Shown in pieces: positions 10,170 to 46,810 of a DNA stretch of 64,000 nt. How positions within the stretch are numbered: position 1 is the stretch's first letter; every line of letters begins with the position of its first letter. The stretch is from an uncultured Collinsella sp. (GTDB taxonomy: Bacteria > Actinomycetota > Coriobacteriia > Coriobacteriales > Coriobacteriaceae), in contig CALKBP010000035.1 of assembly GCA_937989885.1 (NCBI GenBank), forward strand, positions 5,427 through 69,426, read 5' to 3'. The position numbers and the translations under genes were made by a program. The notes beneath the pieces were generated by a model. That model saw only the letters and a list, made by a program, of their open reading frames with translations, ran no database searches and was not told the origin of the DNA.

Positions 10170-10329
10170 GCCACGAAATGCGGCCATCTACTACGTTTAG
10201 TCGAGCATCCTCGACTATCCCGGAATATGCGAAAATAAAACCGCAGGTAGACGACTTGCCGATTTTTGAAAAAGCCGGCTATGGTTGGCTCCTGCGGCTT
10301 AAACGTAGTAGATAGGCCCCTTTCGTGGC
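10170..10329. mobile_element. MITE-like element (~160 bp, ~28-bp terminal inverted repeats), copy A (inverted relative to copy B)
   Basis: Ends gccacgaaatgcggccatctactacgttt ... aaacgtagtagataggcccctttcgtggc. Internal core aaaaccgcaggtag (= ctacctgcggtttt on the other strand) and a small internal palindrome ccggctttttcaaaaatcgg. Near-identical to 37075-37234; related to 46651-46810. Confidence 0.7.
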
Positions 10330-10344
10330 ACAGCGTCAGACCAG

Positions 10345-10425
10345 TCCAATTGGGACGGGGCTTATTTGACCACTTGTCGATCTGATTGCCCAAGTAGTCA
10401 AAAAAGCCCCGTCCCAAATTAGCTA
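10345..10425. repeat. ~25-bp inverted repeat (ttgggacggggcttatttgaccacttg / caagtagtcaaaaaagccccgtcccaa)
   Basis: Read directly; lies between the MITE copy and the SRP RNA. Confidence 0.5.
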
Positions 10426-10461
10426 CCTTGCCCCATCGGGCTGGAGCGGGTAAGATATACC

Positions 10462-10586
10462 GAGCGCCTAGCGCGTTCGATGGGTTCGGATGACGACATG
10501 TTCCGAATCTGGTCAGGTCCGGAAGGAAGCAGCCATAAGGAGCCTCTGTCGGGCATCCGAATCCATCGAGCGCACGGGCGCTTTTT
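10462..10586 (+). ncRNA. ffs: Signal recognition particle RNA (small 4.5S-type SRP RNA)
   Basis: Contains the invariant domain IV sequence GGUCAGGUCCGGAAGGAAGCAGCC (24/24 identical to E. coli 4.5S RNA). Flanking arms pair as one long hairpin (gcgcctagcgcgttcgatgggttcggatg / catccgaatccatcgagcgcacgggcgc) followed by ttttt. Confidence 0.85.
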
Positions 10587-10599
10587 GGTGCCGCGACAT

Positions 10600-10694
10600 G
10601 GCCCGGCCGGCGACGAGGTATTTGGTGTCTCGCTGGTCCTCGGCTGCGCCTGCGGGATCGCTCGACTACCAAATACCTCGTCGCCGGCCGGGCC
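10600..10694. repeat. Perfect 27-bp inverted repeat with 41-nt spacer immediately downstream of ffs
   Basis: ggcccggccggcgacgaggtatttggt ... accaaatacctcgtcgccggccgggcc, read directly. Confidence 0.7.
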
Positions 10695-10913
10695 CCGTCG
10701 TCCAAAAATCACCCGTAAAGGCGCGTTTAGCTGAACAATTCAATCCCGTGCTTAGTGGCGCTCGCTGGCGTTGCCAAAACATTGGCTGCTACGTGCCTTG
10801 GGCGCTAGTGACCGTTGCCCTTACATCTGTAACGAGTTGCTTACGCATCCCCAGGGTTCGCCGTACTATCATGAATCAGATTGAATAGAGATGATGATAG
10901 GGAGCGCCTTTTT

Positions 10914-12755
10914 ATGATTGAGCTGCTCAGGCGTTTTGGTGGTAAGTTTCGCCGGTATATGGTGATTGGTCCTGCGTGCAAGTTGATCGAAGTAATCTTT
11001 GACCTGCTTACGCCGCTGGTGATTGCCCAGATGATTGATAGGGGCATCGGCGTGCACGATGTGAACGCTGTCGTCCACTACGGTATATTGCTTGCCGCCA
11101 TGGCCGTGATCGGCATCTCGTTTACGCTCGTCTGCCAAAAGATGGCGGCGCTGACCTCGCAGGGCATGGGCACCGACATTCGCGGTGCGCTCTACCAGCA
11201 CATCAACAAGCTGAGCTATGCTGAGCTCGATCGCTTTGGCACGCCGTCGCTCATCACGCGCATCACCAACGACGTCAATCAGGTGCAGCTCGCCGTGGCG
11301 CTGGGCGTGCGCATGCTTATCCGCTGGCCTTTCCTGGCGGTGGGCTCCATGGTTACGGCCCTCGCCATCGACCTTAAGCTCGGCATTATCTTTTTAATCT
11401 GCACGCCCGCCATCGGCCTGGTGTTTTGGTTTGTCATGGCGCGCTGCATTCCGTACTACAAGCAGCTGCAGGCAAAGCTCGACCGCATTGCGCTCATTTG
11501 CCGCGAGGGGCTTTCGGGCGCTCGTGTGGTCCGCGCGTTTGTGCGCGAGGATCACGAGCGCGAGCGTTTTGCCCAGGCGGCTGACGATCAGGCGCATGTC
11601 GCCATCGCGGTGGGCAAGCTCTCGTCGATTCTCAACCCCGTCACGTTTTTGGTGATGAACCTGGGCGTGTGCGCCATCCTGTGGGTGGGCGGCATCCAGG
11701 TGAATGTGGGCGAGCTCACGCAGGGCCAGGTCATGGCGTTTGTCAACTACATGACGCAGACGCTCACCTCCATCGTGTACGTCGCCAACCTGGTCGTGGT
11801 CTTTACCAAGGCGAGCGCCAGTGCGTCGCGTCTCAACGAGGTGCTCAATTGCGTGCCGAGCATCACCGACGAGGGCAACCAGCCGGTCGCGCTGCCCAAG
11901 CCGGGCAATGTCGCTCCCGTTCCTGCGCTGAGCTTGAGCCATGCGAGCTTCTCGTTTGGCGCCGGCGCGGCCAATGCTGTCAACGATGTGACGCTGGAAC
12001 TCCCACTGGGCAAAACGCTCGGCATTATCGGCGGCACGGGCAGTGGTAAGTCCACGCTCGTCTCGCTCATTCCGCGCCTGTACGATGCGGGTACCGGCAG
12101 CGTGAGCGTAATGGGTGCCGACGTGCGCACCTGGCTGCTCGACCAGCTGCGCCACGTGGTCGCGACCGTCCCGCAGCGCGCGTCGCTGGTGAGCGGCACC
12201 ATTCGCAGCAACCTGACCTGGCGCGACGAGTCGGCGACCGACGAGGAGCTCTGGGCGGCGCTCGATATGGCGCAGGCCAGCGAGTTCGTGCGCAACAAGC
12301 CGCAGGGCTTGGATGCCCCGGTCGAGGCGGGCGGCAAGAACTTCAGCGGTGGTCAGCGTCAGCGCCTGACCATTGCGCGTGCCCTAGTGGGCTCGCCGCA
12401 GGTTCTGATCATGGACGATTCCGCCTCGGCGCTCGACTTTAAGACCGATGCGGCGCTTCGCCACGCCATCCGCGAGCGCAGCGTGCGCGGCGCCGCCGAG
12501 GGCGGGCTGCCGCTGACGACCGTCATCGTGAGCCAGCGCGTCTCGACCGTGCGCGATGCCGACATGATCTGTGTGCTCGATCACGGTTCGGTTGCGGGCC
12601 TGGGTACGCACGACGAGCTGTACGCAAGCTGCCAGCTCTACCGCGAGATTTGCCAGTCGCAGCTCCGCCGTGAGGAGCTCGAGGGCCAGCAGGGGAGTGC
12701 GACGCCCGCTTCGGACTCCGCCCCTGCATCCACCCGCGCAAAGGAGGGCTGCTAA
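10914..12755 (+). CDS. ABC transporter ATP-binding protein/permease (exporter; first of a pair)
   Basis: TM domain followed by Walker A GGTGSGKST, signature FSGGQRQRLTIARAL, Walker B VLIMDDSASALD. ATG at 10914 after gatagggagcgcc. Confidence 0.8.
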   Translation: MIELLRRFGGKFRRYMVIGPACKLIEVIFDLLTPLVIAQMIDRGIGVHDVNAVVHYGILLAAMAVIGISFTLVCQKMAALTSQGMGTDIRGALYQHINKLSYAELDRFGTPSLITRITNDVNQVQLAVALGVRMLIRWPFLAVGSMVTALAIDLKLGIIFLICTPAIGLVFWFVMARCIPYYKQLQAKLDRIALICREGLSGARVVRAFVREDHERERFAQAADDQAHVAIAVGKLSSILNPVTFLVMNLGVCAILWVGGIQVNVGELTQGQVMAFVNYMTQTLTSIVYVANLVVVFTKASASASRLNEVLNCVPSITDEGNQPVALPKPGNVAPVPALSLSHASFSFGAGAANAVNDVTLELPLGKTLGIIGGTGSGKSTLVSLIPRLYDAGTGSVSVMGADVRTWLLDQLRHVVATVPQRASLVSGTIRSNLTWRDESATDEELWAALDMAQASEFVRNKPQGLDAPVEAGGKNFSGGQRQRLTIARALVGSPQVLIMDDSASALDFKTDAALRHAIRERSVRGAAEGGLPLTTVIVSQRVSTVRDADMICVLDHGSVAGLGTHDELYASCQLYREICQSQLRREELEGQQGSATPASDSAPASTRAKEGC

Positions 12756-14615
12756 ATGAATCCGTATACTTCTTCCGGTTCGGTCGCCACGATGACGGCC
12801 AACGTGTCCGGTAATGATAACCTCAACGACCTGGACGACGGCCCACGCCAGCCCGGCGACCCTGAGCGCTATCCCGTGGGCGCGGTGACCCGCCGCCTGC
12901 TGGGCTATGTTCGCCCGCACCGCGTCTCGTTTGCGGCGTCGTTTGTGAGCGCCGCCATCTCGGTGATCTTGCAACTCTATACGCCCATCCTCATCGGCGA
13001 GGGCATCGACCTCATCGTCGCCGCCGGGCGGGTGGACTTCGACGCGCTGCTGCCGCTTGTCACCAAGCTCGCAATTGTCGTCGTAGGCGCTGCGGCCTTC
13101 CAGTGGCTGCAGGGCTACTGCGTTAACCGCCTGTCCTACGAGACGGTGCGCGACATGCGCGTGGAGGCGAGCGACAAGCTCAGCCGCATGCCGCTCAGCT
13201 TTATCGACAGCCATGCCCACGGCGACCTTATGAGCCGCGTGGTCAACGATGTCGACCAGGTTGGCGATGGCTTGCTGCAAGGCTTCACGCAACTCTTTAC
13301 CGGTGTTATCACCATCGTTGGCACGCTCGCGTTTATGCTCTCCATTAACCTGACCATGACGCTCGTGGTGGTGCTCGTCACGCCGCTTTCCATCTTTGCA
13401 GCCGGCGCCATCGCCAAGCTTTCTAACAAAAGCTTTACGGCCCAGCAGCGTATTCAAGGGCAGCTCGGTGGTCATATCGAGGAGTACGTGGGCGAGCAGA
13501 AGCTTGTCGACGCCTTTGCCTACGGCCCCAACGCCCAGCAGCGCTTCGATGCCCTCAATGCCGAGCTCTACACCGCGGGCGAGCGCGCGCAGTTTATGGG
13601 TTCGCTCTCCAACCCCGGCACGCGCTTTATCAACAACATCATCTATGCCGTGGTCGCTGTGATCGGCTGCGTGGGCGTGATCACGGGCGTGCCCGCGGCG
13701 CTTACGGTGGGCGGCGTGCAGATCTTCCTGTCCTATGCCAACCAGTACACCAAGCCGTTCAACGAGGTCACCAACGTCATTACGCAGATCCAGACCGCGT
13801 ACGCCTCGGCGCGCCGCATGTTTGCGCTGCTCGATGCGCGCGAGCAGGAGCCCGATGCGCCGGATGCCGTGGAACTTGCCGCCCCGAAGGGCGAGGTTTC
13901 GTTTGAGCATGTGGACTTTAGCTATGTGCCCGACCGCAAACTGCTGCAGGACATCTGCATCGAGGCCAAGCCCGGCATGCGCTTTGCCCTGGTCGGCCCC
14001 ACGGGCTGTGGCAAGACGACGCTCATCAATTTGCTACTGCGTTTTTACGATATCGATGCCGGTCGCATTGCGGTCGATGGTCGTTCCTCGCGTGACTACA
14101 CGCGCGCAAGCCTGCGCCGCGCCTTTGGCATGGTGCTGCAGGACACTTGGCTGTTCGAGGGCACGGTGGCGGAAAACATCGCCTACGGCTGTCCCGACGC
14201 CACGCGCGAGCAGGTTATCGAAGCTGCCAAGCGCGCGCATGCGCACAAGTTTATCGTGCAGCTGCCAGGCGGCTACGATACGGTCATCGGCGAGGACGGC
14301 GGCACGTTTAGCCAGGGTCAAAAACAGCTGCTGTGCATCGCGCGCGTCATGCTCACTGACCCGGCGATTTTGCTGCTGGACGAGGCAACGTCGAGCATCG
14401 ATACACGTACCGAGCTGCAGGTGCAGGCGGCATTCGATGAGCTCATGGCCGGTCGCACAAGCTTTGTCGTGGCGCACCGCCTGAGCACCATCCGCAACGC
14501 CGACTGCATTCTGGTGATGCGCGACGGCCAGATTATCGAGCGCGGCACGCACGACGAGCTGCTAGTGGCAGACGGCTTCTACGCCGAGCTCTACCGCAGC
14601 CAATTCGCCCAGTGA
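12756..14615 (+). CDS. ABC transporter ATP-binding protein/permease (exporter; second of the pair)
   Basis: ATG immediately after the taa of the upstream gene. Walker A GPTGCGKTT, signature FSQGQKQLLCIARVML, Walker B ILLLDEATSSID. Confidence 0.8.
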   Translation: MNPYTSSGSVATMTANVSGNDNLNDLDDGPRQPGDPERYPVGAVTRRLLGYVRPHRVSFAASFVSAAISVILQLYTPILIGEGIDLIVAAGRVDFDALLPLVTKLAIVVVGAAAFQWLQGYCVNRLSYETVRDMRVEASDKLSRMPLSFIDSHAHGDLMSRVVNDVDQVGDGLLQGFTQLFTGVITIVGTLAFMLSINLTMTLVVVLVTPLSIFAAGAIAKLSNKSFTAQQRIQGQLGGHIEEYVGEQKLVDAFAYGPNAQQRFDALNAELYTAGERAQFMGSLSNPGTRFINNIIYAVVAVIGCVGVITGVPAALTVGGVQIFLSYANQYTKPFNEVTNVITQIQTAYASARRMFALLDAREQEPDAPDAVELAAPKGEVSFEHVDFSYVPDRKLLQDICIEAKPGMRFALVGPTGCGKTTLINLLLRFYDIDAGRIAVDGRSSRDYTRASLRRAFGMVLQDTWLFEGTVAENIAYGCPDATREQVIEAAKRAHAHKFIVQLPGGYDTVIGEDGGTFSQGQKQLLCIARVMLTDPAILLLDEATSSIDTRTELQVQAAFDELMAGRTSFVVAHRLSTIRNADCILVMRDGQIIERGTHDELLVADGFYAELYRSQFAQ

Positions 14616-14642
14616 GCAAGACGCGGGACATGTAACGCAGCG

Positions 14643-15908
14643 CTAGGGCGCGAGCGTGTCAACGGGGGCAACGATGATGCCCTCGGGCGTTGTGTGGACC
14701 GGCATGCCGAACCCGATGACGATGAGTTTGGCCGCGGGAGGCCTCTCGCCGCGTTCGACCAGCTTGCGCTCGAGTCGAAGCAGGTTTGCAGACGCCTCGG
14801 GGATCTGCGGGCTTCCGAGTTTTACTTCCACGGCAATCCAAGTTCCATCGCGCCTGTGTATAACGGCATCGACCTCGAGATCGTCGGCGTCGTGGTAGTG
14901 GGACACCGATGAGTCATTTGCGGCGGCATAGACCTTAAGGTCGTGCAGGACGAGGGATTCGAAGAGCAGCCCCAGTGTCTTCGGGTCGGATGCCAATGAC
15001 TCCGGATTTGCTCCGAGCAGCGCAACGGCAAGCGAAGGGTCGGCGAGGTGCCTTTTCGCACTTTGCCGCAGCTTTACCGGCGACCTGAGCGCCGGATGCC
15101 AAGCCGGGATATCGTCGATGATATTGATTCGTCTCAGAGCATCCATGTATCTGGAGACCGAATTCTTCGAAACGCCGGTACCGATATCTTTATCGATGGA
15201 CTTCGATCCAGCAAGTGTCGACTCATTTCGCGCAAGCGATGTCAAAAGAGACCTGACCTTGACCGGATCACGTTTGACGCCGTCAGTTCTAGAAACATCC
15301 GATTCGCATACGCCATCAACATAAGCAGCGGCAATCCGCATAGCATTTTCAGTTGTTTTCCCCATCGCTTGAGGCCAACCACCGCGACACAGCAAATCGG
15401 CGATGCCGGCGACACCAGCGATCGATCCGACCGCCTGCTTGGCGGGGTGGCCGGAAAGCAGCGCTCTAATCGAAGCCGCGCCCGAAGAAACGCCGAGCTC
15501 AAACAGCGTCATGGTATCCATTCGCAATCTAGCTATTCGCCCAACGCCGCTATGCATTGGCTGCTTCGAATCTTGCGGCGTTGCTGAGCCCGTAAGAATA
15601 AACTGTCCGGATTCTCCCTGTCTTGCGTCACACTCGAAACGTATGGCATCCCATAGTTTTGGTTCTTCCTGCCATTCGTCGATGAGTCTAGGCGACGGTC
15701 CTGCTATTGCCTGCGCTGGGTCGATCCGAGCCAACTGGAGAGCGGAAAAATTTCCAGCCGGATCGGAAAGAGACAAGGATGATTTGGCAAAACGTCTGGC
15801 CGTAGTGGTCTTTCCGCACCACTTCGGGCCTTGAATGAGAACCGCACCGAAGATATCGAGATTATGCCTGATTGCCTTGTCGATGCATCTGTCTACATAC
15901 CTATCCAT
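14643..15908 (-). CDS. AAA+ ATPase fused to a C-terminal PD-(D/E)xK-like domain (COG1373 / AAA_14 + DUF4143 architecture), paralog 1
   Basis: Walker A LIQGPKWCGKTT near the N-terminus. C-terminal LEVDAVIHRRDGTWIAVEVKLG matches a D...E-V-K nuclease-like motif. Same architecture as the genes at 48312 and 52281. Confidence 0.7.
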   Translation of the reverse strand: MDRYVDRCIDKAIRHNLDIFGAVLIQGPKWCGKTTTARRFAKSSLSLSDPAGNFSALQLARIDPAQAIAGPSPRLIDEWQEEPKLWDAIRFECDARQGESGQFILTGSATPQDSKQPMHSGVGRIARLRMDTMTLFELGVSSGAASIRALLSGHPAKQAVGSIAGVAGIADLLCRGGWPQAMGKTTENAMRIAAAYVDGVCESDVSRTDGVKRDPVKVRSLLTSLARNESTLAGSKSIDKDIGTGVSKNSVSRYMDALRRINIIDDIPAWHPALRSPVKLRQSAKRHLADPSLAVALLGANPESLASDPKTLGLLFESLVLHDLKVYAAANDSSVSHYHDADDLEVDAVIHRRDGTWIAVEVKLGSPQIPEASANLLRLERKLVERGERPPAAKLIVIGFGMPVHTTPEGIIVAPVDTLAP

Positions 15909-15954
15909 ACCGTCACCTTCTCAACTTGCCTTGATTATGTATTTTACCAGCTGC

Positions 15955-16045
15955 GTGGTGACGATTGACGGTAATCTGTGGTGACGATTGATTACGAACT
16001 ATGGTGACGATTGGCGGGTATCTGTGGTGACGGTTGTCATCGATT
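15955..16045. promoter_or_regulatory. Four direct repeats of tggtgacgattg at ~22-25-bp spacing, upstream of the AAA+/nuclease gene start (15908)
   Basis: gcgtggtgacgattgacgg / tgtggtgacgattgattac / tatggtgacgattggcggg / tgtggtgacggttgtcatcgattc, read directly. Confidence 0.5.
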
Positions 16046-16792: not shown

Positions 16793-16879
16793 GTCCATCT
16801 TCTAAATGCAATGCCCTCCCGGGTGGCGGCCCTTTATCGATGGAAGGCCTCATAAGCTGAAGTTCAATCCCCGGGATGC

Positions 16880-17125
16880 GTCCAGAGTGGGACGTGCTTT
16901 CCCGATGGGTGGGGTTTCGGAAAGTGGGGACTGGATTTTGAGCCTAGAGTGGGACATGCTTTCCCAAAGGCCGCTCAACGGGAAACCGCATCCCACTATT
17001 AGCCCGAGAAACGGGATGCACTTTCCCAAAGAGAGCCAACGGGAAACTACGTCCCACAATCAGCTTCCAAAGTGGGACACACTTTCCCGTTGAGGGTTGT
17101 TCCGGAAAGTGCATCCCGGAAATGG
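16880..17125. repeat. BIME-like array of ~15-bp palindromic units (GGGAYRYGCWTTCCC) in alternating orientation at a ~32-bp period, upstream of the giant surface-protein gene
   Basis: agtgggacgtgctttccc, agtgggacatgctttccc, gggaaaccgcatcccact, gggatgcactttccc, gggaaactacgtcccaca, agtgggacacactttccc, ggaaagtgcatcccgg. The related array downstream of the same gene is at 21447-21590. Confidence 0.65.
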
Positions 17126-21360: not shown

Positions 21361-21446
21361 TAGCCAGTCGAACATATCGACAACCCAAAAACCCGGGTAG
21401 CCAAAAACAGGCCACCCGGGTTTTCTGTTGAGTGGAGACTCCGCAA

Positions 21447-21590
21447 GCGGAAACTGCATCCCACAATTAGCGCCCGGAACGGGACACATTTTCCGTCAAG
21501 CCCTCATCCGGAAAATCCATCCCAGTTTGAGCGGAAACTGCATCCCATTCCAGACAAGAATTCCGGGACACGCTTTCCGGATACAAAGAA
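21447..21590. repeat. BIME-like alternating-orientation repeat array (same unit family as 16880-17125), downstream of the giant surface-protein gene
   Basis: cggaaactgcatcccaca, gggacacattttccg, ccggaaaatccatccca, cggaaactgcatccca, ccgggacacgctttccgg. Confidence 0.6.
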
Positions 21591-25093: not shown

Positions 25094-25125
25094 ATGTGAC
25101 AAAGGGGCAGTCCCTTTGTTACATT
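25094..25125. repeat. REP-like palindrome family 2, copy 2 (aatgtgacaaaggggcagtccctttgttacatt)
   Basis: Near-perfect palindrome directly after the nitroreductase stop. Confidence 0.65.
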
Positions 25126-25249
25126 TCATATCGCCGCGGTGGCCTAAAGGCCGTATAAATGTTTATTTAGCTGGGAAAACAGTGCCATTCAAACATGGGC
25201 CGATTACCTATAATTCCTTCGAACATTAAAGTTGGGAGGAAACCGGCTT

Positions 25250-29998: not shown

Positions 29999-30024
29999 GT
30001 CGGCATCCGCCATCCCACTATGAG

Positions 30025-30088
30025 TTGCGGTGAAATACGGTCTAAATTTGCCTAATTCCAGGCAAAACAGTCCGTATTCCACCGCAAC
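30025..30088. repeat. Conserved hairpin element, family 1, copy 2
   Basis: gttgcggtgaaatacgg ... ccgtattccaccgcaac; same stems/flanks as 10052-10116. Sits between the convergent kdpE-like and rlmKL genes. Confidence 0.7.
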
Positions 30089-30092
30089 TTCG

Positions 30093-34564: not shown

Positions 34565-34699
34565 GCCGACACGAGCTTGCCGGTAGGTTGGTAATCGGCT
34601 TCCATATCCTGCCGTGGGCAAAGGTACCCCCTGCAGCGACGTGCAAAATCGAGAGTATTCAGCAAGGTAAAGGCTTTTACCAGCTAGATAAAGCACGGA

Positions 34700-34747
34700 A
34701 CAGCCCCCGTTTTGGCTCTGATGATGCTAAAACGGGGGCTGTTTTTG
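34700..34747 (+). terminator. Rho-independent terminator
   Basis: aacagcccccgtttt...aaaacgggggctgtt followed by ttttt. Confidence 0.6.
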
Positions 34748-34844
34748 ACTTTATTGCCTCTGAGGGGCGTTCGGAGCGGCAGAAATTGCAGAATACTCGC
34801 GATTTTGCACATCGCGAGAGGGGGGGGGCCTTGCTTTAGGTGGT

Positions 34845-36992
34845 TTACTTCCCCTGCACCATGGTGAGCGAGATCTTCTTGCGGTCGCGATCGACCTTTT
34901 CCACCCACACCTTTACCGTGTCGCCGACGCGTACCACGTCGCTCGGGTGCTTGACGAAGCGGTTGGCCAGCTTGGAGATGTGTACGAGGCCGTCCTGGTG
35001 CACGCCCACGTCGACGAAGGCGCCAAAGTCCACAACGTTGCGCACCGTGCCCTTGAGCTCCATGCCGGGCTCCAGGTCATCGATGGAAAGTGCCGAGCGG
35101 CTAAAGACCACCTCGGGCGCGTCGTCGCGCGGGTCGCGGCCGGGCTTCTTGAGCTCGTTGACGATGTCGATGAGCGTGAGGGTGCCGCAGTCCAGGTCGC
35201 TTGCCAGCGCCGAGATGCTGCCCAGACGGCGCTCAATGTCGGGCACGCCGCCACGGCTGAGCTCGCTGGCTTTAACGCCTGCGCGCTCCAGGACGGACGT
35301 GGCCACCTCGTAGCTTTCGGGGTGGACGCTCGTCGCGTCGAGCGGGTTCTTGCCACCGCTGATGCGCAGGAAGCCCGCGGCGTTGAGATATGCCTTGGGC
35401 CCCAGTTTGGGGACCTTCTTAAGCTGGCGGCGATCGGTAAAGGCACCGTTTTCCTCGCGGTAGGCCACGATGTTCTTGGCCACGCTCGGCGTAATGCCCG
35501 ATACGTATCCCAGCAGGCTCGCGCTCGCGGTGTTCACGTCGACACCCACGCGGTTGACGACGTCCTCCACCACGTGGCCCAGGGTGCGCGAGAGCTCGGC
35601 CTGGTCAAGGTCGTGCTGGTACTGGCCCACGCCGATGGACTGGGGCGGAATCTTGACGAGCTCTGCCAGTGGGTCCTGCAGGCGGCGGCCCAGGCTCATG
35701 GCGCCGCGCACGGTGACGTCCAGGTCGGGATACTCCTGGCTCGCGAGCTCGGAGGCGGAGTACACCGACGCGCCGGCCTCGTTAACAATGGTGTATCGCA
35801 GCCCAGGCGCCTGCTCGGCAATGAACTCCGAGACGACTTCCTCGGTCTCGCGGCTGGCGGTGCCGTTGCCGATGACGATGGTGTTGACGCCGTCCTTCTT
35901 GACGAGGCGGGCGAGTTCGCGCTTGGTGCCGGCGACGTCGTGGCGCGGCTTGGTGGGGTAGACCACGCCGTGGTCGAGCAGTTTGCCGGTCTCGTCCATG
36001 ACGGCGACCTTGCAGCCCGTGCGGTAGCCCGGGTCGAGCGCGAGCACGCGGGCGCCACGGACGGGGCGTGCCGAGAGCAGGCCTTCGAGATTCTTGGCAA
36101 AGACGTTGATGGCCTCGGTCTGGGCGCGGACGGTGAGCTTAGCACGGGCCTCGCGCTCCAGCGAGGGGGCCATGAGGCGCTTGTAGCCGTCAGCGATAGC
36201 GGCGTCAAAGACGGGCGCGAACACGCCCTGGCGTCGGGGCCAACGGCTGCCGAGGCGTGCCGTGGCGGCGGCGCCGTCGACGTTCACGCGCACGCGGAGC
36301 TTGCCCTCGCGCTCACCGCGGTCGATAGCCAGCACGCGGTGGTTGGGTATACGGCGCAGCGGCTCATCATAGCTGTAGTACGGCTCGTAGGGAGTCTTTT
36401 CGGCGGGGTCGGTGGCCTCGACGACGATGTCGGCGGTGTTTTGCGTAAAGGCGCGCAGGTCGGCGACGTTCTCGGGGTCCTCGGCTACCGTCTCGGCCAC
36501 GATGTCGGCGGCGCCGGCGAGCGCCTTCTCGGGCGTGTCGAAGCCGGCCTCCTCGTTGACGTATGCCGCGGCGGCGTCGAGTGCGCTGCCCTTGGCCGAG
36601 GCCTGCATGATGATCATGTTGGCGAGCGGCTCCAGGCCGGCCTCGCGGGCCTTTTGCGCGCGGGTCATGCGCTTTTTGCGGTAGGGCTTGTAGAGGTCCT
36701 CGACACGCTGGAGCTGCGTGGCCTCGCGAATCTGCTGCTCGAGTTCGGGCGTGAGTTTGCCCTGGGCGTCGATGAGCAGAACGACGTCCTCTTTACGCTG
36801 CTCGAGATTGCGCAGGTAGGACAGGCGCTCGTCGAGTGCGCGCAGGGCGACGTCGTCCATGCCGCCCGTGGCTTCCTTGCGGTAGCGCGAGATAAAGGGG
36901 ATGGTGTTGCCCTCGTCGATGAGCTTGACGGCTGCCTCGACGTTGGCGGCCTTAAGGTTGAGCTCGCGGGCGAGCTGGGCGATAAGATCCAT
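34845..36992 (-). CDS. tex: Transcription accessory protein Tex (S1 + YqgF + HhH domains)
   Basis: MDLIAQLARELNLKAANVEAAVKLIDEGNTIPFISRYRKE, the hallmark Tex N-terminus; C-terminal S1 domain GMELKGTVRNVVDFGAFVDVG...ISLTM. Start taken at the internal ATG 36992 preceded by aaggag; the ORF-track 5' extension is not supported. Confidence 0.85.
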   Translation of the reverse strand: MDLIAQLARELNLKAANVEAAVKLIDEGNTIPFISRYRKEATGGMDDVALRALDERLSYLRNLEQRKEDVVLLIDAQGKLTPELEQQIREATQLQRVEDLYKPYRKKRMTRAQKAREAGLEPLANMIIMQASAKGSALDAAAAYVNEEAGFDTPEKALAGAADIVAETVAEDPENVADLRAFTQNTADIVVEATDPAEKTPYEPYYSYDEPLRRIPNHRVLAIDRGEREGKLRVRVNVDGAAATARLGSRWPRRQGVFAPVFDAAIADGYKRLMAPSLEREARAKLTVRAQTEAINVFAKNLEGLLSARPVRGARVLALDPGYRTGCKVAVMDETGKLLDHGVVYPTKPRHDVAGTKRELARLVKKDGVNTIVIGNGTASRETEEVVSEFIAEQAPGLRYTIVNEAGASVYSASELASQEYPDLDVTVRGAMSLGRRLQDPLAELVKIPPQSIGVGQYQHDLDQAELSRTLGHVVEDVVNRVGVDVNTASASLLGYVSGITPSVAKNIVAYREENGAFTDRRQLKKVPKLGPKAYLNAAGFLRISGGKNPLDATSVHPESYEVATSVLERAGVKASELSRGGVPDIERRLGSISALASDLDCGTLTLIDIVNELKKPGRDPRDDAPEVVFSRSALSIDDLEPGMELKGTVRNVVDFGAFVDVGVHQDGLVHISKLANRFVKHPSDVVRVGDTVKVWVEKVDRDRKKISLTMVQGK

Positions 36993-37074
36993 GAAACTCC
37001 TTGCGGTAAAGGTGCGTTTGCAGCACAGAGCTACCAAGGATACCACCCGTCCCAAAAGACTGTTTTGGGGTTGC

Positions 37075-37234
37075 GCCACGAAAGGGGCCTATCTACTACG
37101 TTTGAACCGTATGGGTCGACCATCCCCCGGTTTTCCGAAAATCGGCAAGCCGTCTACCTGCGGTTTTAATTTCGCGAAATTCGGCATGGTTGAGGGTAAT
37201 CGGTTAAACGTAGTAGATAGGCCCATTTGGTGGC
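37075..37234. mobile_element. MITE-like element, copy B
   Basis: gccacgaaaggggcctatctactacgtttgaacc ... ggttaaacgtagtagataggcccatttggtggc. Internal ccggttttccgaaaatcgg palindrome and ctacctgcggtttt core. Confidence 0.7.
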
Positions 37235-37403
37235 GAACGAATCAAGCCGAGGTGCAAAATAGCCCCCGCCCCAGAAAAATCGTCGTTAAGGTAGCAAAAA
37301 GCCCCGCGGGCAGGAGGCTGCTCGCGGGGCAAAGAAGAGGGGCATATTTGTGGCGGACCGAGGGGTTCGGCATGGGGTTTCTGCCGCGGCCGCTCTTAAG
37401 GCA

Positions 37404-38444
37404 TTACAGCTCGACGAGCTGGCCGGTCTCGGCGGCCTCCTTGATGGCGTTAAGCAGCGTGAGCGTCTTAACGTTGTCGGCGGGGGTCACGACGGGCTCG
37501 ACCTCGCGGCGAACGACCTTCACAAAGTGCTTGAGCTGCATCTTGTGCGGCAGCGCCGGGTCGACGGCCGGAATCTCCATCTGCAGCGGCTTGTGCCAGT
37601 TGGAGGCTCCGTCGTAGGAGAACTGGTGCAGGCGGGGCAGCGAAAGGGCACCCAAGGTTCCGCCAATAAAGTAGGCGTCGGCGTCGAAGGGGCGGTACTG
37701 CGGATCCTCGCGAGCGGTGGCCTCCCAGTTCCAGGGGCTGGCGGTGGCGTCGGAGATGGTCATGCTCGCAAGCGCGCCATCGGCAAAACGGACGTTGACC
37801 ACGGCGGAGTCCTCGGTCTCAAAACCGCGGGCGGCGCTGGACTGCATGCCCTGGACGGCAACGGGCTCGCCCAGCAGGTAGCGGAGCAGGTCGACGTCGT
37901 GCACCAGGTTGACCAGGATCGGGCCGGCACCCTTCTTGCGGCGCCACTCGACATCGAAGTACTCGTCATTCTTATAGATCATGTAGTGGAAGCTCGACAC
38001 GGTGAGCTTGCCCAGCTCGCCGGACTCGATGATCTCCTTGGCCTTGTTGACGAGGGGATTGTGGCGACGGTGCTGACCCACGAGTACGGGCACGCCGGCG
38101 GTCTCGGCCTCGGCGGCAAAGGCCTGGGCATCCTCGAGGTCGTTGGAGATCGGCTTTTCGACCAGCGGCACGATGTTGCGCTTCACGGCCTCGCGGGCAA
38201 CGCCCAGGTGCAGGTCGTTGGGGGTGGCGATGATGACGGCCTCGGGCTTGACCTCGTCCATCATCTGGGCGGGATCGGTAAAGAACGGCACGCCGGCGGC
38301 CTCGGCCGTGGCGCGGGCGCCCTCAAAGGCGTCGGCGATGGCGACGAGCTCGGCCTCGGGCTCCTCGGTGACAAAGCGGATGTGGTTGCGGCCCATGGCG
38401 CCGGCGCCGATAACGGCAATGCGGACGGGGTTGAGCTCAGACAT
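37404..38444 (-). CDS. Gfo/Idh/MocA family NAD(P)-dependent oxidoreductase
   Basis: N-terminal Rossmann RIAVIGAGAMGRNH, EKP motif (VEKPISN). Confidence 0.8.
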   Translation of the reverse strand: MSELNPVRIAVIGAGAMGRNHIRFVTEEPEAELVAIADAFEGARATAEAAGVPFFTDPAQMMDEVKPEAVIIATPNDLHLGVAREAVKRNIVPLVEKPISNDLEDAQAFAAEAETAGVPVLVGQHRRHNPLVNKAKEIIESGELGKLTVSSFHYMIYKNDEYFDVEWRRKKGAGPILVNLVHDVDLLRYLLGEPVAVQGMQSSAARGFETEDSAVVNVRFADGALASMTISDATASPWNWEATAREDPQYRPFDADAYFIGGTLGALSLPRLHQFSYDGASNWHKPLQMEIPAVDPALPHKMQLKHFVKVVRREVEPVVTPADNVKTLTLLNAIKEAAETGQLVEL

Positions 38445-38473: not shown

Positions 38474-38506
38474 AATGCGACAGAGGGGCTGTCCCTTTGT
38501 CGCATC
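38474..38506. repeat. REP-like palindrome family 2, copy 3 (aatgcgacagaggggctgtccctttgtcgcatc)
   Basis: Between the MFS stop and the oxidoreductase start. Confidence 0.6.
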
Positions 38507-38513
38507 GGTAAAA

Positions 38514-41830: not shown

Positions 41831-41868
41831 CTCACCTGGAACGGGACTTTTTTGACTCCTTACAAAAT

Positions 41869-41910
41869 GAGGCCCTGGCCAAACGGCCAGGGCCTCACCA
41901 CTTCTTTTTA
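41869..41910 (+). terminator. Rho-independent terminator after the LysR gene
   Basis: gaggccctggccaaacggccagggcctc followed by ...cttcttttt. Confidence 0.6.
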
Positions 41911-41934
41911 GGCTGCGAGAAAAGGCTGCGCGTA

Positions 41935-42038
41935 GGAGTTCCCCGAGGGAGACGGGGTGTTTGCTCCGCGCGCAGTTTCGCAGCGAAGCGAGAATGTTTG
42001 AGCACGGAGTAAACACCCCGTCTCCCTCGGGGAACTCC
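41935..42038. repeat. 33-bp near-perfect inverted repeat with ~38-nt spacer (ggagttccccgagggagacggggtgtttgctccg / cggagtaaacaccccgtctccctcggggaactcc)
   Basis: Read directly; lies in the convergent gap between the LysR gene and the ABC exporter. Confidence 0.65.
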
Positions 42039-42064
42039 GTTGGGAGCGTTGGGGCTGTTTTGAG

Positions 42065-43984
42065 CTACTCCAGCTCAAACGCTCCGGTGTAGAGCTGGTA
42101 GTAATACCCGCGCTTGGCGATCAGCTCGTCGTGGTTGCCGCGCTCGATGATGCGGCCGTGGTCCAGACAGATGATCGCGTCGGAGTTGCGCACGGTGGAC
42201 AGGCGGTGCGCGATGACAAACGTCGTGCGACCCTCCATGAGCTTGTCCATGCCCGCTTGCACGATGGCCTCGGTGCGGGTGTCGATGGAGCTCGTGGCCT
42301 CGTCCAGAATCATCGCCGGCGGATCGGCGACGGCGGCGCGTGCGATCGAAATCAGCTGGCGCTGGCCCTGCGACAGCTGCGCGCCGTTGCCGGTGAGCAT
42401 CGTGTCGTAGCCGTCGGGCAGGCGGGTGATAAAGTCGTCCGCGCCCGCGAGCTTGGCCGCCGCGATGCACTCCTCGTCGGTGGCGTCCAGGTTGCCGTAG
42501 CGGATGTTATCCATCACGGTGCCGGTGAACAGGTTCACGTCCTGCAGCACCACGCCCAGCGAGCGGCGCAGATCGGCCTTGCGGATCTTGTTGACGTTGA
42601 TGCCGTCGTAGCGGATCTTGCCATCGGCGATGTCATAGAAACGGTTGATGAGGTTGGTGATGGTCGTCTTGCCGGCACCGGTGGCACCGACAAACGCGAC
42701 CTTCTGGCCCGGCTTAGCAAACACGGACACGCCGTGCAGCACCTCGTGGTCGGGCGTGTAGCCAAAGTCGACGTTGTCCATGACCAGGTCGCCGCGCAGC
42801 GGTACGTACTCGATCTCGCCGGTCGCGCGGTGCGGATGCTTCCACGCCCACATGCCGGTGTGGTGGTCGGCCTCCTCGAGCTGCCAGGTATCGGGGTTCA
42901 CCTGCGCGTTGACGAGCGTCACGTAGCCTTCGTCGGCCTCGGGCTCCTCGTCGATGAGCTCAAAGATGCGGTCGGCGCCGGCGAGGCCCATGACCACGGC
43001 GTTGATCTGCTGCGAGATCTGACCGATCTGTCCGCAGAACTGCTTGGTCATGTTGAGGAACGGCACCACGACGGCGATGGACAGTGTCATGCCCGAGATG
43101 CTCAGGTTGGGCACGCCCAGCGCCAGGAAAATGCCGCCTGCCAGTGCGACCAGCACGTAGAGCAGGTTGCCCAGGTTCATAAGGATAGGCATGAGGATGT
43201 TGGCGTACATGTTGGCCTTCTGCGAGACCTCGAAGAGCTTTTCGTTGCGCTCGTCAAAATCAGCCTCGGCGGCAGACTCGTGGCAGAATGCCTTGACGAC
43301 CTTCTGGCCGTTCATGACTTCCTCGATATGGCCCTCGACCACGCCGAGCTCGGACTGCTGCGCAATAAAGAAACGCGCGGAGTTGGAGCCGAGCAGCTTG
43401 GTCATAAAGGTCATAAAGACGACGCCGGCCACAATGACCAGGCACATCCACACGCTGTAGTACAGCATGATAAAGAATACCGTGACGATGACGATGGTCG
43501 TCATGAGCAGGTTGGGCAGCGACTGGCTGATCATCTGGCGCAGCGTGTCGATGTCGTTGGTGTAGTGGCTCATGATGTCGCCGCGCTGGTGCGTGTCGAA
43601 GTAGCGAATCGGCAGGTCCTGCATGCGGTTGAACATCTTCTCGCGCAGCTTCTCGAGCGAGCCCTGCGTGACGATGGCCATGGCGCGGTTCCAGAAGAGC
43701 GAAGACAGGATGCCGATGCCGTAGATGCAGGCGAGGGTAGTCACGAGCTGTGCGATCTTGGGCTGTGCGGCTTCCCAATCGCCCGACTGCCACGATTCGC
43801 TAATAATCTGCAGGGCGCTCTGAAGGAAGGTCGCGCCGATGGAGTTGATGATGGCGCAGAGCACCACGCCGACGACGACGAGGGGCAAAAGCACGGGGTA
43901 GAAGCCAAAGAGCGTCTTGATGAGGCGCGACATGGTGCCGCCCTTGCGGTTGAGCGCGCGCTCGGCGGTCGTTGCCTTACTCAT
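42065..43984 (-). CDS. ABC transporter ATP-binding protein/permease (exporter; distal gene of the MarR-linked pair)
   Basis: Walker A GATGAGKTT, signature LSQGQRQLISIARAA. ATG (MSKATT...) at 43984 overlapping the stop of the upstream ABC gene; the longer ORF-track N-terminus is not supported. Confidence 0.8.
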   Translation of the reverse strand: MSKATTAERALNRKGGTMSRLIKTLFGFYPVLLPLVVVGVVLCAIINSIGATFLQSALQIISESWQSGDWEAAQPKIAQLVTTLACIYGIGILSSLFWNRAMAIVTQGSLEKLREKMFNRMQDLPIRYFDTHQRGDIMSHYTNDIDTLRQMISQSLPNLLMTTIVIVTVFFIMLYYSVWMCLVIVAGVVFMTFMTKLLGSNSARFFIAQQSELGVVEGHIEEVMNGQKVVKAFCHESAAEADFDERNEKLFEVSQKANMYANILMPILMNLGNLLYVLVALAGGIFLALGVPNLSISGMTLSIAVVVPFLNMTKQFCGQIGQISQQINAVVMGLAGADRIFELIDEEPEADEGYVTLVNAQVNPDTWQLEEADHHTGMWAWKHPHRATGEIEYVPLRGDLVMDNVDFGYTPDHEVLHGVSVFAKPGQKVAFVGATGAGKTTITNLINRFYDIADGKIRYDGINVNKIRKADLRRSLGVVLQDVNLFTGTVMDNIRYGNLDATDEECIAAAKLAGADDFITRLPDGYDTMLTGNGAQLSQGQRQLISIARAAVADPPAMILDEATSSIDTRTEAIVQAGMDKLMEGRTTFVIAHRLSTVRNSDAIICLDHGRIIERGNHDELIAKRGYYYQLYTGAFELE

Positions 43985-45791
43985 GTGCCTCGCCTCCTTC
44001 CTGGGTCTGAGCTTGCGTTGTGGATGCCTCGGTGTCGGCCTCGACGGCCCCTTCGCCCTCGGCAGACATCTTGTTTTGCGAGGTAAAGGTCTCGCGGTAG
44101 ATCTCGCTTGTCTTAAGCAGCTCGTCATGGTTGCCGATTTGCGCGATGCGGCCACCTTCCATGACGATGATGCGGTCTGCGTCCTGCACGGAGCTAATGC
44201 GCTGGGCGATGATGAGCTTGGTCGTGTTAGGCAGATAGCTTGCCAGCCCTGCGCGAATCTTGGCGTCGGTCTTGGTGTCGACGGCGCTGGTGGAGTCGTC
44301 CAGGATCAAGATCTTGGGGCGACGCAGCAGGGCACGCGCAATGCACAGGCGCTGCTTCTGACCGCCGGAAACATTGGAGCCGCCCTGCTCGATCCAGGTG
44401 TCGTAGCCCTTGGGGAAACCGTCGACAAACTCATCGGCGCAGGCCAGATGTGCCGCCTCGCGGACCTCCTCGTCGGTGGCATTCGGGTCGCCCCAGCGCA
44501 GATTTTCGGCGATGGTGCCGCTAAACAGCACGTTTTTCTGCAGCACCATGGCGACCTGGTGGCGCAGGGCGTCCAGGTCGTAGTCGCGCACGTCCATGCC
44601 GCCCACGCGCACGGTGCCTTCGGTGGCGTCGTACAGGCGGGCGATGAGGTTTACAAGCGTGGACTTGGCCGAGCCAGTGCCGCCGATGATGCCGATGGTC
44701 TCGCCGCTCTTAATGTGCAGGTCGATATCGTCGAGCGCCTGGCGCTTCGCATGCGCGGAATACTTAAAGCTCACGTGGTCAAAGTCGATGGAACCGTCGA
44801 CAACCTCGAGCACGGGCTCGGCGGGATTGGCGATCGTGGGCTCGGCGGCCAACACCTCGGTAATGCGGTGCGCCGATTCGTCGGCCATGGTCACCATGAC
44901 AAAGATCATCGACAGCTGCATCAGGCTCATAAGGATCTGGAAACCATAGGTAAAGATCGAGGAGAGCTGGCCCACATCGAACAGCGTGCCCTGGCTCGTG
45001 ATGATGAGCTTGGAGCCCAGGTAGATGATGACGACAAACGCGCCGTTGACGCAGATGTTCATCATGGGGTTGTTAAAGGCCAGCAGTTTCTCGGCGCGGG
45101 TGAAGTCCATCTGGACGTCGCGCGCGGCGGTCGCGAACTTCTCCTTCTCAAAGTCTTCGCGCACATAGCTCTTGACCACGCGCATGCCGGTGACGTTTTC
45201 CTCGACAGACTCGTTAAGTGCGTCGTACTTGTGGAACACGCGCGAGAAGATGGGGCGCACCTTAAAGATGATAAAGAACAGTCCAAAGCCCAGTAGCGGA
45301 ATGATGACCAGGTAGACCATGGCGACGCTGCCGCCCATGATAAACGCCATGGTAAAGGCGAAGATCAATACCAGCGGCGCGCGCACGGCGATACGGATAA
45401 TCATCATAAAGGCCTGCTGCACGTTGTTGATGTCGGTGGTCAGGCGCGTGACGAGCGAGGAGCTCGAGAACTCATCGATGTTGGCAAAGCTGAACGTCTG
45501 GATCTTGTAGAACAGGTCGTGACGCAGGTTCTTGGCGAAGCCGCAGCTCGCATGGCTGCAGGTGACGCCGGCAGCGGCGCCAAAAGCAAGCGACGTCAGC
45601 GCGATGAGCACCAAAAAGCCTGCGGTGGGAAGCATCTCGGCTACGGTGGTGCCGTCTTTGATGGCGTCGATCAGGTTGGCGGTGATAAATGGAATCAGCA
45701 TCTCGCAGAGCACCTCGCCAAGCACGAGCAATGGCGTGGCAACAGCGACTTTCATATAGTCGCGGATGCTGCCCATGAGGGTTTTAATCAT
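43977..45791 (-). CDS. ABC transporter ATP-binding protein/permease (exporter; proximal gene of the MarR-linked pair)
   Basis: Walker A GGTGSAKST, signature VSGGQKQRLCIARALL, Walker B ILILDDSTSAVD; overlaps the marR stop by 8 nt. Confidence 0.8.
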   Translation of the reverse strand: MIKTLMGSIRDYMKVAVATPLLVLGEVLCEMLIPFITANLIDAIKDGTTVAEMLPTAGFLVLIALTSLAFGAAAGVTCSHASCGFAKNLRHDLFYKIQTFSFANIDEFSSSSLVTRLTTDINNVQQAFMMIIRIAVRAPLVLIFAFTMAFIMGGSVAMVYLVIIPLLGFGLFFIIFKVRPIFSRVFHKYDALNESVEENVTGMRVVKSYVREDFEKEKFATAARDVQMDFTRAEKLLAFNNPMMNICVNGAFVVIIYLGSKLIITSQGTLFDVGQLSSIFTYGFQILMSLMQLSMIFVMVTMADESAHRITEVLAAEPTIANPAEPVLEVVDGSIDFDHVSFKYSAHAKRQALDDIDLHIKSGETIGIIGGTGSAKSTLVNLIARLYDATEGTVRVGGMDVRDYDLDALRHQVAMVLQKNVLFSGTIAENLRWGDPNATDEEVREAAHLACADEFVDGFPKGYDTWIEQGGSNVSGGQKQRLCIARALLRRPKILILDDSTSAVDTKTDAKIRAGLASYLPNTTKLIIAQRISSVQDADRIIVMEGGRIAQIGNHDELLKTSEIYRETFTSQNKMSAEGEGAVEADTEASTTQAQTQEGGEAHE

Positions 45792-46290
45792 CCAGTTCCT
45801 CCCAGGTTACACGGATTTTCTCGAGCATTTCGGCGAGCTGCTCGCGCTCGTCGTGAGTGAGGGCACTAAAGGCCCGTTCTCTAAAGCGGATGCGGGCCGC
45901 CTGGTCGATGCGGGCGTTTTCCCGGCCGGTTTCGGTCAGGCGAATGGTGAGTTGCCGTCGATCCTTGGGGTTACGGCTGCGCTCGATGAGGCCGTTGACC
46001 TCGAGCTTGGACAGGATCTCGGAAAGCGACCCCGGCTTGAGGTCAAAGTGCATGCCGAGTTCCTGCTGCGACATCTCGCCGCCGGGCTGCTTGGCCAGCA
46101 GGCAGATGATGGGCGCCTTGCCGGACACGCCTCCGCCATGAAAATGCATGTAATGGCCGCAAAAACCCAGGCCGCTCAGGATGCGCTTGGCGAGTTTGTC
46201 TTCGGCGCTGACCGCTTCGAGTATGTCTACCGGTTGCGACGGGTCACCGCCGGGCTCGTGCGAACAAAGGTTAAGAGGTTCATCGCACAT
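45784..46290 (-). CDS. MarR family transcriptional regulator
   Basis: Winged-HTH region LLAKQPGGEMSQQELGMHFDLKPGSLSEILSKLEVNGLIERSRNPKDRRQLTIRLTETG. N-terminal ~45 aa are Cys/His-rich (CSH...CGHYMHFHGGG). Confidence 0.75.
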   Translation of the reverse strand: MCDEPLNLCSHEPGGDPSQPVDILEAVSAEDKLAKRILSGLGFCGHYMHFHGGGVSGKAPIICLLAKQPGGEMSQQELGMHFDLKPGSLSEILSKLEVNGLIERSRNPKDRRQLTIRLTETGRENARIDQAARIRFRERAFSALTHDEREQLAEMLEKIRVTWEELDD

Positions 46291-46391
46291 GAATTAGTGT
46301 TGCTCCTTTCTTTAGTTAGGTAGTGGAATTGTTTTGTGCCTAACCAATTTAGGAGCGTGAGAAATCAATGTCAAGGTACCAAACTTATTAA

Positions 46392-46419
46392 GTTACGGCG
46401 TTTTGCCAAACGCCGTAAC
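46392..46419. repeat. Hairpin gttacggcgttttgccaaacgccgtaac followed by gctcgacgctgc (family 4), copy 1
   Basis: The same hairpin + flank recurs at 61531-61570 directly after prfA. Confidence 0.6.
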
Positions 46420-46650
46420 CGCTCGACGCTGCAAGCGTTCCTAAGCGGCAATCTGGCGTTCAATCGTCGGGCATGGCCACAAGGCCTATGCCCTCCTCTT
46501 TCACGCCACCTTGCTCGCTTAGGAACGCTTTCGCTGTCCGTCCTCAACCTGTGATTCCGCCACGGTCCGCTTCGGTGCATGTGGTCCCTTGGGGACGGAG
46601 GAAAAGGGATCACTTTGAGCTGTGATGACGCCATTCGAAGCGGCCTCGCC

Positions 46651-46810
46651 AAAAACTATGCCTAATTACTACGATGAATCCGGCATCCCCGACCACAACG
46701 GCTGTTTCTGAAAAAGCGCAAGCTATCTACCTGCGGTTTTGTTGGAGCGAAATTTGTTGTGGTTGGAGGTGGGCGGTTAAACGTAGTAAATAGGCATAGT
46801 TTTGAAATGG
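46651..46810. mobile_element. MITE-like element, copy C (diverged)
   Basis: aactatgcctaattactacgatgaa ... ttaaacgtagtaaataggcatagtt TIRs; internal aagctatctacctgcggtttt core. Confidence 0.6.

Follow-up and report, generated by a model that had tools for sequence, protein, structure and literature searches.

A stretch of 64,000 nucleotides (nt) from an uncultured Collinsella sp. (contig CALKBP010000035.1, positions 5,427 to 69,426; hereafter the window) carries three copies of an intergenic repeat of about 160 nt, here named family P. A sequence-only reading of the window had presented these copies as miniature inverted-repeat transposable elements (MITEs) with terminal inverted repeats (TIRs) of about 28 bp, and inspection of the sequence confirmed the three copies at the positions that it had given, with an adjustment for the third. 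Copy A (10170..10329, minus strand; nhmmer score of 174 bits), a 160-nt imperfect palindrome with the ends GCCACGAAA..TTTCGTGGC, lies between a tadA/glycerate-kinase gene that ends at 10033 and the signal recognition particle (SRP) RNA (10477-10572). Copy B (37075..37234, plus strand; 188 bits) has the start of tex (37001) on one side and, on the other, a GFO/IDH/MocA oxidoreductase gene whose stop is at 37404; the copy lies past the terminator of this latter gene. Copy C (plus strand; 128 bits) separates the divergent marR-family (start at 46290) and pdxK-like (start at 46984) genes; it is a real copy, with its palindrome at 46648..46812, but it does not belong to the subfamily of A and B (subfamily 1a), its arms being hybrid, with a 5' arm like that of subfamily 2 (TTACTACGATGAATC) and a 3' arm like that of subfamily 1 (TTAAACGTAGTAA). 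All three were intergenic and non-coding, as had been claimed, with no open reading frame (ORF) conserved between copies.

Copy A, in reverse complement, was 79% identical to copy B over 182 nt, copies B and C shared 77% identity over 91 nt, and the three-way alignment had a mean column identity of 78%. An almost invariant, asymmetric core, TCTACCTGCGGTTTT, was found exactly three times in the window, at 10237..10251 (minus strand, copy A), 37153..37167 (plus strand, copy B) and 46726..46740 (plus strand, copy C); allowing up to two mismatches, six matches were obtained against 0.08 expected, and the arm motif TTAAACGTAGTAGATAGGC had five matches against 0.00 expected. The nhmmer profile of the family (see below) recovered only the three known copies in the window. 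Each copy was predicted to fold as a single long hairpin (-59 to -87 kcal/mol), and their GC content was 45-52%, compared with 61% for the window. The small central palindrome ccggttttccgaaaatcgg, attributed by the earlier reading to the family, was present in the B-type copies and confined to them.

Distribution and anatomy of family P

Screening one genome per species with the pattern CTACCTGCGGTTTT-N30-48-AACGTAGTA yielded at least 120 loci. About 70 of the 80 loci listed with titles were named Collinsella or Coriobacteriaceae, the remaining ones being titled 'bacterium' only or bearing other genus names on 'cleanbin' assemblies. An nhmmer profile built from the scan loci detected 169 copies in the 120 listed loci plus the window, so that many copies exist in Collinsella beyond the three from which the family was first proposed, and none of the 169 fell within a predicted gene. 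Phage records gave no match to P, and among plasmid records P was present only in one chromosome-like C. aerofaciens replicon. Two IMG/VR contigs with a GC content of 54-57% carried P (L201, 9898-10060, and L202, 402-572), in both cases adjoining stretches of about 150 nt that were 92-97% identical to parts of L040/L090; given the GC content of the contigs, these copies probably mark prophage/chromosome junctions and not carriage by phages. A literature search found no account of MITEs, repetitive extragenic palindromic (REP) sequences or such repeats in Collinsella. P is a family of non-coding foldback repeats that had not been described, and its occurrence in this analysis was nearly confined to Collinsella (Coriobacteriaceae, human gut).

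Clustering of the listed loci by their flanks produced approximately 25-35 recurrent locus classes, the class of copy A having 12 members and that of copy B nine, and the flanks of copy C being unique in this sample. Copies resembled each other more within a flank class than between classes, grouping by locus and not by genome, which indicates that the positions are orthologous and that the paralogues arose before the species diverged. Three subfamilies were distinguished, whose arms differ coordinately around a common centre: the arms of subfamily 1, to which copies A and B belong, read GCCACGAAA..GGCC.ATCTACTACGTTTAA, those of subfamily 2 (TGCCATTTC)AAAACTATGCCGGTTTACTACGATGAATC, and those of subfamily 3 CAAAACTATGCCGGATTACGGGGCT. 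Arrays of different subfamilies were common, for instance subfamily 2-Y-subfamily 1-Y-subfamily 3, with a box named Y (described below) between units. The core was exact in 162 of 191 copies, a count that took in copies not picked by the search pattern, and the other 29 were counted with one or two mismatches.

The anatomy of P was read from an alignment of 73 copies. Columns 14-62 pair with columns 125-173 in one register; 72% of the cells were paired in this register, compared with 33-40% when the partner was slid, and changes on both sides of a pair affected 462 cells, compared with 296 +/- 18 in shuffles. Pairing dropped to background beyond GCCACG...CGTGGC. The entire 160 nt is therefore an imperfect palindrome with an asymmetric centre of about 40 nt; the arms are complementary, as the proposed 28-bp TIRs require, but the complementarity spans nearly the whole element and not the termini alone. 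The centre is laid out as AAAA..GCA(A/G)GC..TCTACCTGCGGTTTT.TTTT, and its core is near-invariant and more conserved than the stem. A full central hairpin, AAAACCGCAGG-loop-CCTGCGGTTTT, was present in about 30 of the 73 copies, and two stem positions of the core strand were mispaired in 40-43 of them, A, B and C included. Arms of subfamilies 1 and 2 contain an invariant CGTAGTA/TACTACG, replaced in subfamily 3 by TTACGGGGC, and there is a conserved arm motif with GTAG, CGTAGTAG; the single arms are not small palindromes in themselves. The idea that the core flips freely within its arms was rejected, the orientation of the core relative to the boxes being nearly fixed within subfamilies. An inverted core relative to arms and flanks was seen at one site, that of copy C, only in the alleles L131 and L163, with a subfamily 3 copy.

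GGGAC boxes and presence/absence alleles

P copies were accompanied by GGGAC boxes of 20-37 nt in two versions, X, (A)GCCCCGTCCCAAAAAGACTG, and Y, CCAAAATGATCCGTTTTCCTCCGTCCCCAAGGGATCAG, and by Z hairpins (AAGTTGCGGTGRAATA...CACCGCAACTT). Of the Y boxes in the species-genome loci listed, 54 of 55 were no more than 200 nt away from a P copy, as were 48 of the 55 X boxes and 90 of the 121 Z motifs; the zone so defined makes up 10% of the sampled DNA. Chance alone should place well over 10% of such motifs there, because this zone is intergenic, where they concentrate, and two unrelated palindromes, which for the same reason offer a fairer comparison, were within 200 nt of P in 8 of 26 (D4) and 0 of 13 (V) cases at the listed loci. 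At filled sites the box occurs twice in direct orientation, once on each side of the palindrome.

X boxes flank copies A and B in the window, and a Y box abuts copy C. An X-box hairpin pair, AATTGGGACGGGGCTT..AAGCCCCGTCCCAAATT (10345..10425), adjoins copy A, on whose other side a Z hairpin, AAGTTGCGGTGAAATA...TATTCCACCGCAACTT, spans 10050..10119; this X-P-Z order was also found in several other flank classes. The left GGGAC box of copy B, CCCGTCCCAAAAGACTG (37046..37062, plus strand), lies 12 nt 5' of the palindrome, and a degenerate direct box on the right, AGCCCCCGCCCCAGAAAAATCGTCG (37261..37285, plus strand), lies 26 nt 3' of it, a two-box architecture that recurs in other flank classes. 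The Y box next to copy C reads, in reverse complement, CCCTTGGGGACGGAGGAAAAGGGATCAC (46586..46616, minus strand). A small ORF starting from the Y box (GGAGG..TTG) was rejected as a gene since it was not conserved between alleles. The second Z hairpin of the window (30022-30090) lies between convergent genes.

The empty-site polymorphism that the sequence-only reading had proposed to look for was borne out at three independent loci, one of them the site of copy C itself, and the unit gained or lost, of about 240-247 nt, comprised the palindrome, its linkers and a GGGAC box. At the first locus, filled in L097 and L058 and empty in L020, the alleles differed by 239 nt: the filled site has the order Y, 18-nt linker, P, 29-nt linker, Y, and the empty one retains a single Y identical to the left one, the bases shared at the junction (L097/L020) being GATCA.

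For the site of copy C, the pdxK-like protein was used to collect 80 metagenome loci (L121-L200) with a protein identity of 97-100%, and P was present in 14 of the 58 loci whose PdxK was at least 97% identical. The copy C module, made up of linker, palindrome and linker, spans 246 nt (46617..46862, plus strand), with bounds that are ambiguous by the common TTT, so that 46614-46859 is equally valid. In the window the site reads GGGATCAC-TTT-G[AGCTG...P...CAGTCCCCA]-TTT-CCGAAACC, and in the empty and otherwise window-like alleles L124 and L122, which keep the abutting Y box, GGGATCA is directly joined to TTTTCCGAAACC. At the third locus P lies between the GGGtGRT and FAD-binding genes of NZ_OY725717.1, a C. 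aerofaciens replicon of 0.9 Mb whose record is classed as a plasmid, and is missing from eight syntenic contigs, the spacer being 247 nt shorter in the two that were aligned (L205 and L207). The whole Y box was kept in two of the three empty sites and part of an X box in the third.

The marR-pdxK spacer (46294-46983 in the window) measured 210-725 nt in 56 of the 58 contigs and about 1640 nt in the other two. It occurred as some 50 different sequences in the 58 contigs, which represented differing combinations of the repeat modules W, V (both described below), Y and P; V copies were present in some of these marR/pdxK alleles.

Nature of family P

P fits the looser class formed by REP sequences, REP doublets forming hairpins (REPINs), bacterial interspersed mosaic elements (BIMEs) and enterobacterial repetitive intergenic consensus (ERIC) sequences better than it fits a MITE defined by TIRs plus target-site duplications (TSDs) and derived from an insertion sequence (IS). 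We hold it to be probable, on balance, that P is a foldback repeat of the REPIN/BIME/ERIC kind, composed of DNA that is selfish or once was. The data themselves show the repetition, the foldback architecture, the coordinated changes of the arms, the confinement to intergenic DNA, the absence of a strand or orientation preference, the association with the boxes and the presence/absence alleles; whether the events were insertions or deletions, which enzyme acts and what P might do for its host are points that we infer. Modules come and go as whole units, in intergenic DNA, and recombination at the box is the most likely mechanism: a box-plus-palindrome unit would integrate beside a resident box, with an enzyme provided in trans, to give box-P-box, and it would be removed when the pair of boxes recombines or replication slips from one to the other, events that the palindrome would stimulate.

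Several observations weigh against this reading of P as mobile, selfish DNA. No TSD of at least 3 nt was found at the palindrome ends of the 73 copies when offsets of +/-3 were compared with shuffles, and the module junctions showed only 3-5 nt of microhomology (TTT, GATCA), within imperfect direct repeats of 20-37 nt. All of the 274 matches of an arm-only hidden Markov model in about 1 Mb of Collinsella DNA were inside P copies, with neither solo arms nor an autonomous partner, and no full-length IS with matching ends was found in that DNA; nor did any of the 45 genes predicted in the window match a transposase or recombinase family, in agreement with the earlier statement that it lacks a cognate transposase. 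Near-identical copies at clearly different loci were not identified: each pair with unrelated flanks and at least 96% identity that was traced to a flank class proved to be orthologous, and the rest did not exceed 94%. Orthologous copies were about as diverged as their flanks, with no extra conservation, and copies clustered by locus; the C. aerofaciens replicon of 0.9 Mb had only two subfamily 1 copies, and the copy B spacer had the same length in 10 contigs with an identical oxidoreductase. The absence of near-identical paralogues, the flank-like divergence and the clustering by locus indicate that the family is old and mostly vertically inherited, and the first of these led us to reject recent bursts. 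So nearly constant and asymmetric a core hints that its sequence has a specific function, for which 'selfish DNA' alone does not account, and all three polymorphisms could be box-to-box deletions instead of insertions, precise excision between direct repeats flanking a palindrome being a frequent event. As for a parent IS between paired copies about 1 kb apart (L040/L002/L021/L090), the interval was read as tRNA genes and not as a transposase.

Part of this evidence bears also on the classical MITE, that is, a deletion derivative of a DDE-type IS with TIRs of about 28 bp and short TSDs. P is like such elements in being small, non-coding and multicopy, in its inverted ends, its intergenic spread and its insertion polymorphism with empty sites, and the bases shared at two sites, TTT for copy C and GATCA for L097/L020, might be what is left of 4-5-bp duplications. 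Apart from the missing TSDs, matching autonomous element and recent near-identical copies, P differs from them in its palindromy over the full length and not at the ends alone, and the unit that is gained or lost reaches 30-90 nt past the proposed TIRs and has no convincing inverted termini itself, all of which makes a classical MITE very unlikely. The sequence-only reading had named, as outcomes that would speak against it, a lack of additional copies and of empty sites, or a conserved RNA gene family behind the similarity; what was found was more copies, filled and empty alleles, and no RNA family that explains P. P modules might instead be cassettes of a dedicated, host-fixed enzyme of the HUH/Y1 type, like the REP-associated tyrosine transposases (RAYTs), or of another site-specific recombinase, which would recognize the folded 160-nt hairpin with its apical core and recombine at the GGGAC boxes, a scheme that we consider doubtful. 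The sole HUH-type candidate seen was a RAYT-like Y1/IS200-like protein of 267-270 aa with a C-terminal helix-turn-helix, encoded in Collinsella outside the window (L204, 2456-3268, equivalent to NZ_OY725717.1, 220955-221767; L205-L212, 6001-6804). It matched Pfam Y1_Tnp (2e-8) and, with a score of 55 bits that falls short of the 80-bit cut-off, NCBIfam REP_Tyr_transpos, the REP-associated tyrosine transposase model, and had 933 homologues at E<=1e-20, the best 120 of the 933 being 86-96% identical. Its gene was single-copy and fixed in place, with the suf operon on one side and the nifU-like/GGGtGRT genes on the other in 8/8 contigs, a placement that is RAYT-like behaviour. A presence/absence polymorphic P copy is located 2.2 kb from this gene in NZ_OY725717.1; no P was found within 6 kb of it in the eight syntenic contigs (L205-L212), and its flanks carry a different inverted motif, U (L205, about 5699-5908 and 6948-7207), so that a link between the Y1 protein and P is unsupported. 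U may be the RAYT-like enzyme's own repeat.

Two further explanations take P for an RNA element or for an element that serves the host. A role as a structured small RNA or a cis-regulatory RNA element, with the hairpin as an RNA structure and the core as a seed or a terminator, would be consistent with the stable predicted folds, the pairs changed on both sides and the single-stranded-looking conserved core followed by a U-run. At gathering thresholds, the only Rfam matches in the window were the SRP RNA and one tRNA, and searching 36900-37400 (the copy B region) with E values up to 10 gave nothing relevant; no Rfam family thus explains the copies. The Collinsella-1 motif, a lead said to go back to Weinberg in 2010, was not among the Rfam matches of the window or of the copy B region, its status in Rfam being unchecked. 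Mismatched stem cells comprised 261 G:U and 263 A:C, an equality which indicates that neither strand is favoured as a folded RNA, and RNAalifold recovered only the outer stems. The 27 locus classes were convergent (n = 7), tandem (n = 16, eight per orientation) or divergent (n = 4), the even tandem split revealing no orientation preference relative to transcription, and no promoter-like sites were called within or beside copies. The lack of strand bias, orientation bias, promoters and Rfam matches argues against a strand-specific RNA gene or leader, and the presence/absence among near-identical strains and the inverted core of L131 and L163 point in the same direction, leaving the RNA explanation highly improbable. 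A host-serving element, possibly domesticated, that persists because it is useful, its apical hairpin and T-run as a terminator or insulator acting one way or both, or its core and arms as a binding site for a host protein, is unlikely as well, if somewhat less so. In its favour, the core is near-invariant over all three subfamilies, about 30 of the 73 centres read AAAACCGCAGG-loop-CCTGCGGTTTT.TTTT with A- and T-runs on both sides, orthologous positions are conserved in many species, the fewest locus classes, 4 of 27, have a divergent (promoter-only) context, and a terminator scan flagged hairpins with a T-run on the strand opposite the core in copy A (10243-10259), where it is the strand transcribed from the upstream gene, and in copy C (46735-46717). 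Against it, no terminator was called at copy B, and L115, with a full CCGCAGG...CCTGCGG centre, had only a weaker hairpin flagged just 3' of the core stem; two core-stem positions are mispaired in more than half of the alignment (40-43 of 73), terminator-like counts were within the shuffle expectation, the contexts include divergent promoters (copy C) and sites that already have another terminator (copy B), P is dispensable at the copy C locus in most strains, and orthologues are no more conserved than their flanks. P is best described as a DNA-level repeat, possibly with some terminator activity; judging from its sequence, the core hairpin with its T-run may act as a terminator as a secondary possibility.

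Among the known systems closest to P are the REPIN/REP-RAYT and BIME systems of E. coli and Pseudomonas (Bertels & Rainey 2011, Nunvar 2010, Ton-Hoang 2012, Gilson/Bachellier). Like REPINs and BIMEs, P consists of long imperfect intergenic hairpins without TSDs that are vertically inherited with occasional gain and loss and form mosaic arrays, those of P combining the three subfamilies with Y linkers; a conserved arm motif contains a GTAG that is reminiscent of REPINs (CGTAGTAG), and the genus has a fixed single-copy RAYT-like Y1 transposase. In contrast to REPINs, whose arms are conserved and whose spacer is variable, P has a conserved centre and arms that vary by subfamily; it is longer (160 nt) and possesses direct-repeat boxes, and the RAYT-like gene is flanked by U instead of P and encodes a protein that scores under the NCBIfam cut-off (55 vs 80 bits). 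Two features of P are unusual: conservation is higher in its loop-side core than in the stem, and its units of about 240 nt are arranged as box-P-box. The ERIC sequences, or intergenic repeat units (IRUs), of enterobacteria and the Correia elements of Neisseria are likewise non-coding, intergenic imperfect palindromes (120-160 bp) with subfamilies and presence/absence among strains; P is not known to share sequence similarity with them, its hosts belong to the Actinomycetota, and it is set apart by the orientation-defining invariant core and the GGGAC boxes, and from the Correia elements, which have 26-bp TIRs and a TA duplication, also by the lack of a TSD. ERIC/IRU and Correia elements can act as terminators or promoters, and their RNA can form hairpins. 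Integron attC arrays resemble P in having imperfect variable hairpins (60-140 nt), gain and loss of units, a site that is kept when empty, and arrays, but P units lack ORFs, a nearby intI and an R/L box consensus and are scattered instead of forming a single array, so that the likeness is an analogy only. Tn3-derived miniature elements, which have GGGG...TAAG inverted repeats of about 38 bp and a 5-bp TSD, were rejected (TIME/MIC type): a flank of copy A (GGTCTGACGCT..ACGAAA..ACGTTTAAG) is similar to what we take to be the Tn3 inverted repeat, at that locus only, and the P consensus has neither GGGG/TAAG nor a 5-bp TSD. To our knowledge, little has been described on REP-like systems in Actinomycetota.

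Other features of the window and significance of P

Other repeats were recorded in the window. Motif U, GCAGAATACTCGCGATTTTGCAC, was found at 34627-34824, where inverted arms of 39 nt stand 120 nt apart 3' of a transaldolase gene, and at 6453-6475. Perfect palindromes of about 31 nt (ATGTGACAAAGGGACAGTCCCTTTGTCACAT) lie just outside gene ends at 25094-25129, 38475-38510, 48140-48175, 49686-49721, 52137-52172, ~53620-53634 and 3173-3187, and bracket each of two AAA_14/DUF4143 ATPase genes (48312-49673 and 52389-53597). The foldback V (61756-61946) has 47-nt arms (TAGTCATTGGGGACGTTCTTAAATGACTAG...) that show 85% complementarity and are separated by 97 nt, and GGGGAC is repeated inside it. A repeat of about 150 nt, W, with two hairpins, one of them terminator-like, occurs at 46419-46551, 55555-55717 and 61578-61740; two copies are directly 3' of the aldose-epimerase and release factor 1 (RF-1) genes, and the third, upstream of copy C, is subject to presence/absence among strains. 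Three and a half tandem units of 23 nt (TGGTGACGATTG...) and a repeat of about 52 nt (CAACGGGAAAC.GCATCCCAC...) in three copies, two of them as an inverted pair, together occupy 15956-16036, 16959-17109 and 21444-21495. Among the genes, 8270-10033 is a single ORF in which a tRNA-adenosine-deaminase-like domain (dCMP_cyt_deam_1/MafB19-deam) is fused to a full glycerate kinase domain, and paralogous ABC_membrane+ABC_tran exporter genes are present at 1162-3171 and 12756-14615, with 72-80% DNA identity at a constant offset of 11441 nt, and also at 10881-12755 and 42065-45791.

Collinsella is a common human gut genus with hundreds of very close 'species', and the gain and loss of P between strains whose neighbouring proteins are 97-100% identical makes it a practical strain marker. 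P is also a source of assembly breaks and spurious ORFs, a possible driver of regulatory differences, for example in the marR/pdxK promoter region, and a first candidate substrate population for testing the RAYT-like transposase of the genus. If it is only decaying selfish DNA, its value would lie mainly in annotation. If, on the other hand, the modules are cassettes, a gut actinobacterium would possess a REPIN-like system of novel architecture, in which a conserved loop, a variable stem, box-P-box units and mixed arrays are combined; this system would be a source of the extreme variation of some intergenic regions between near-identical strains and could rewire termination or expression there.

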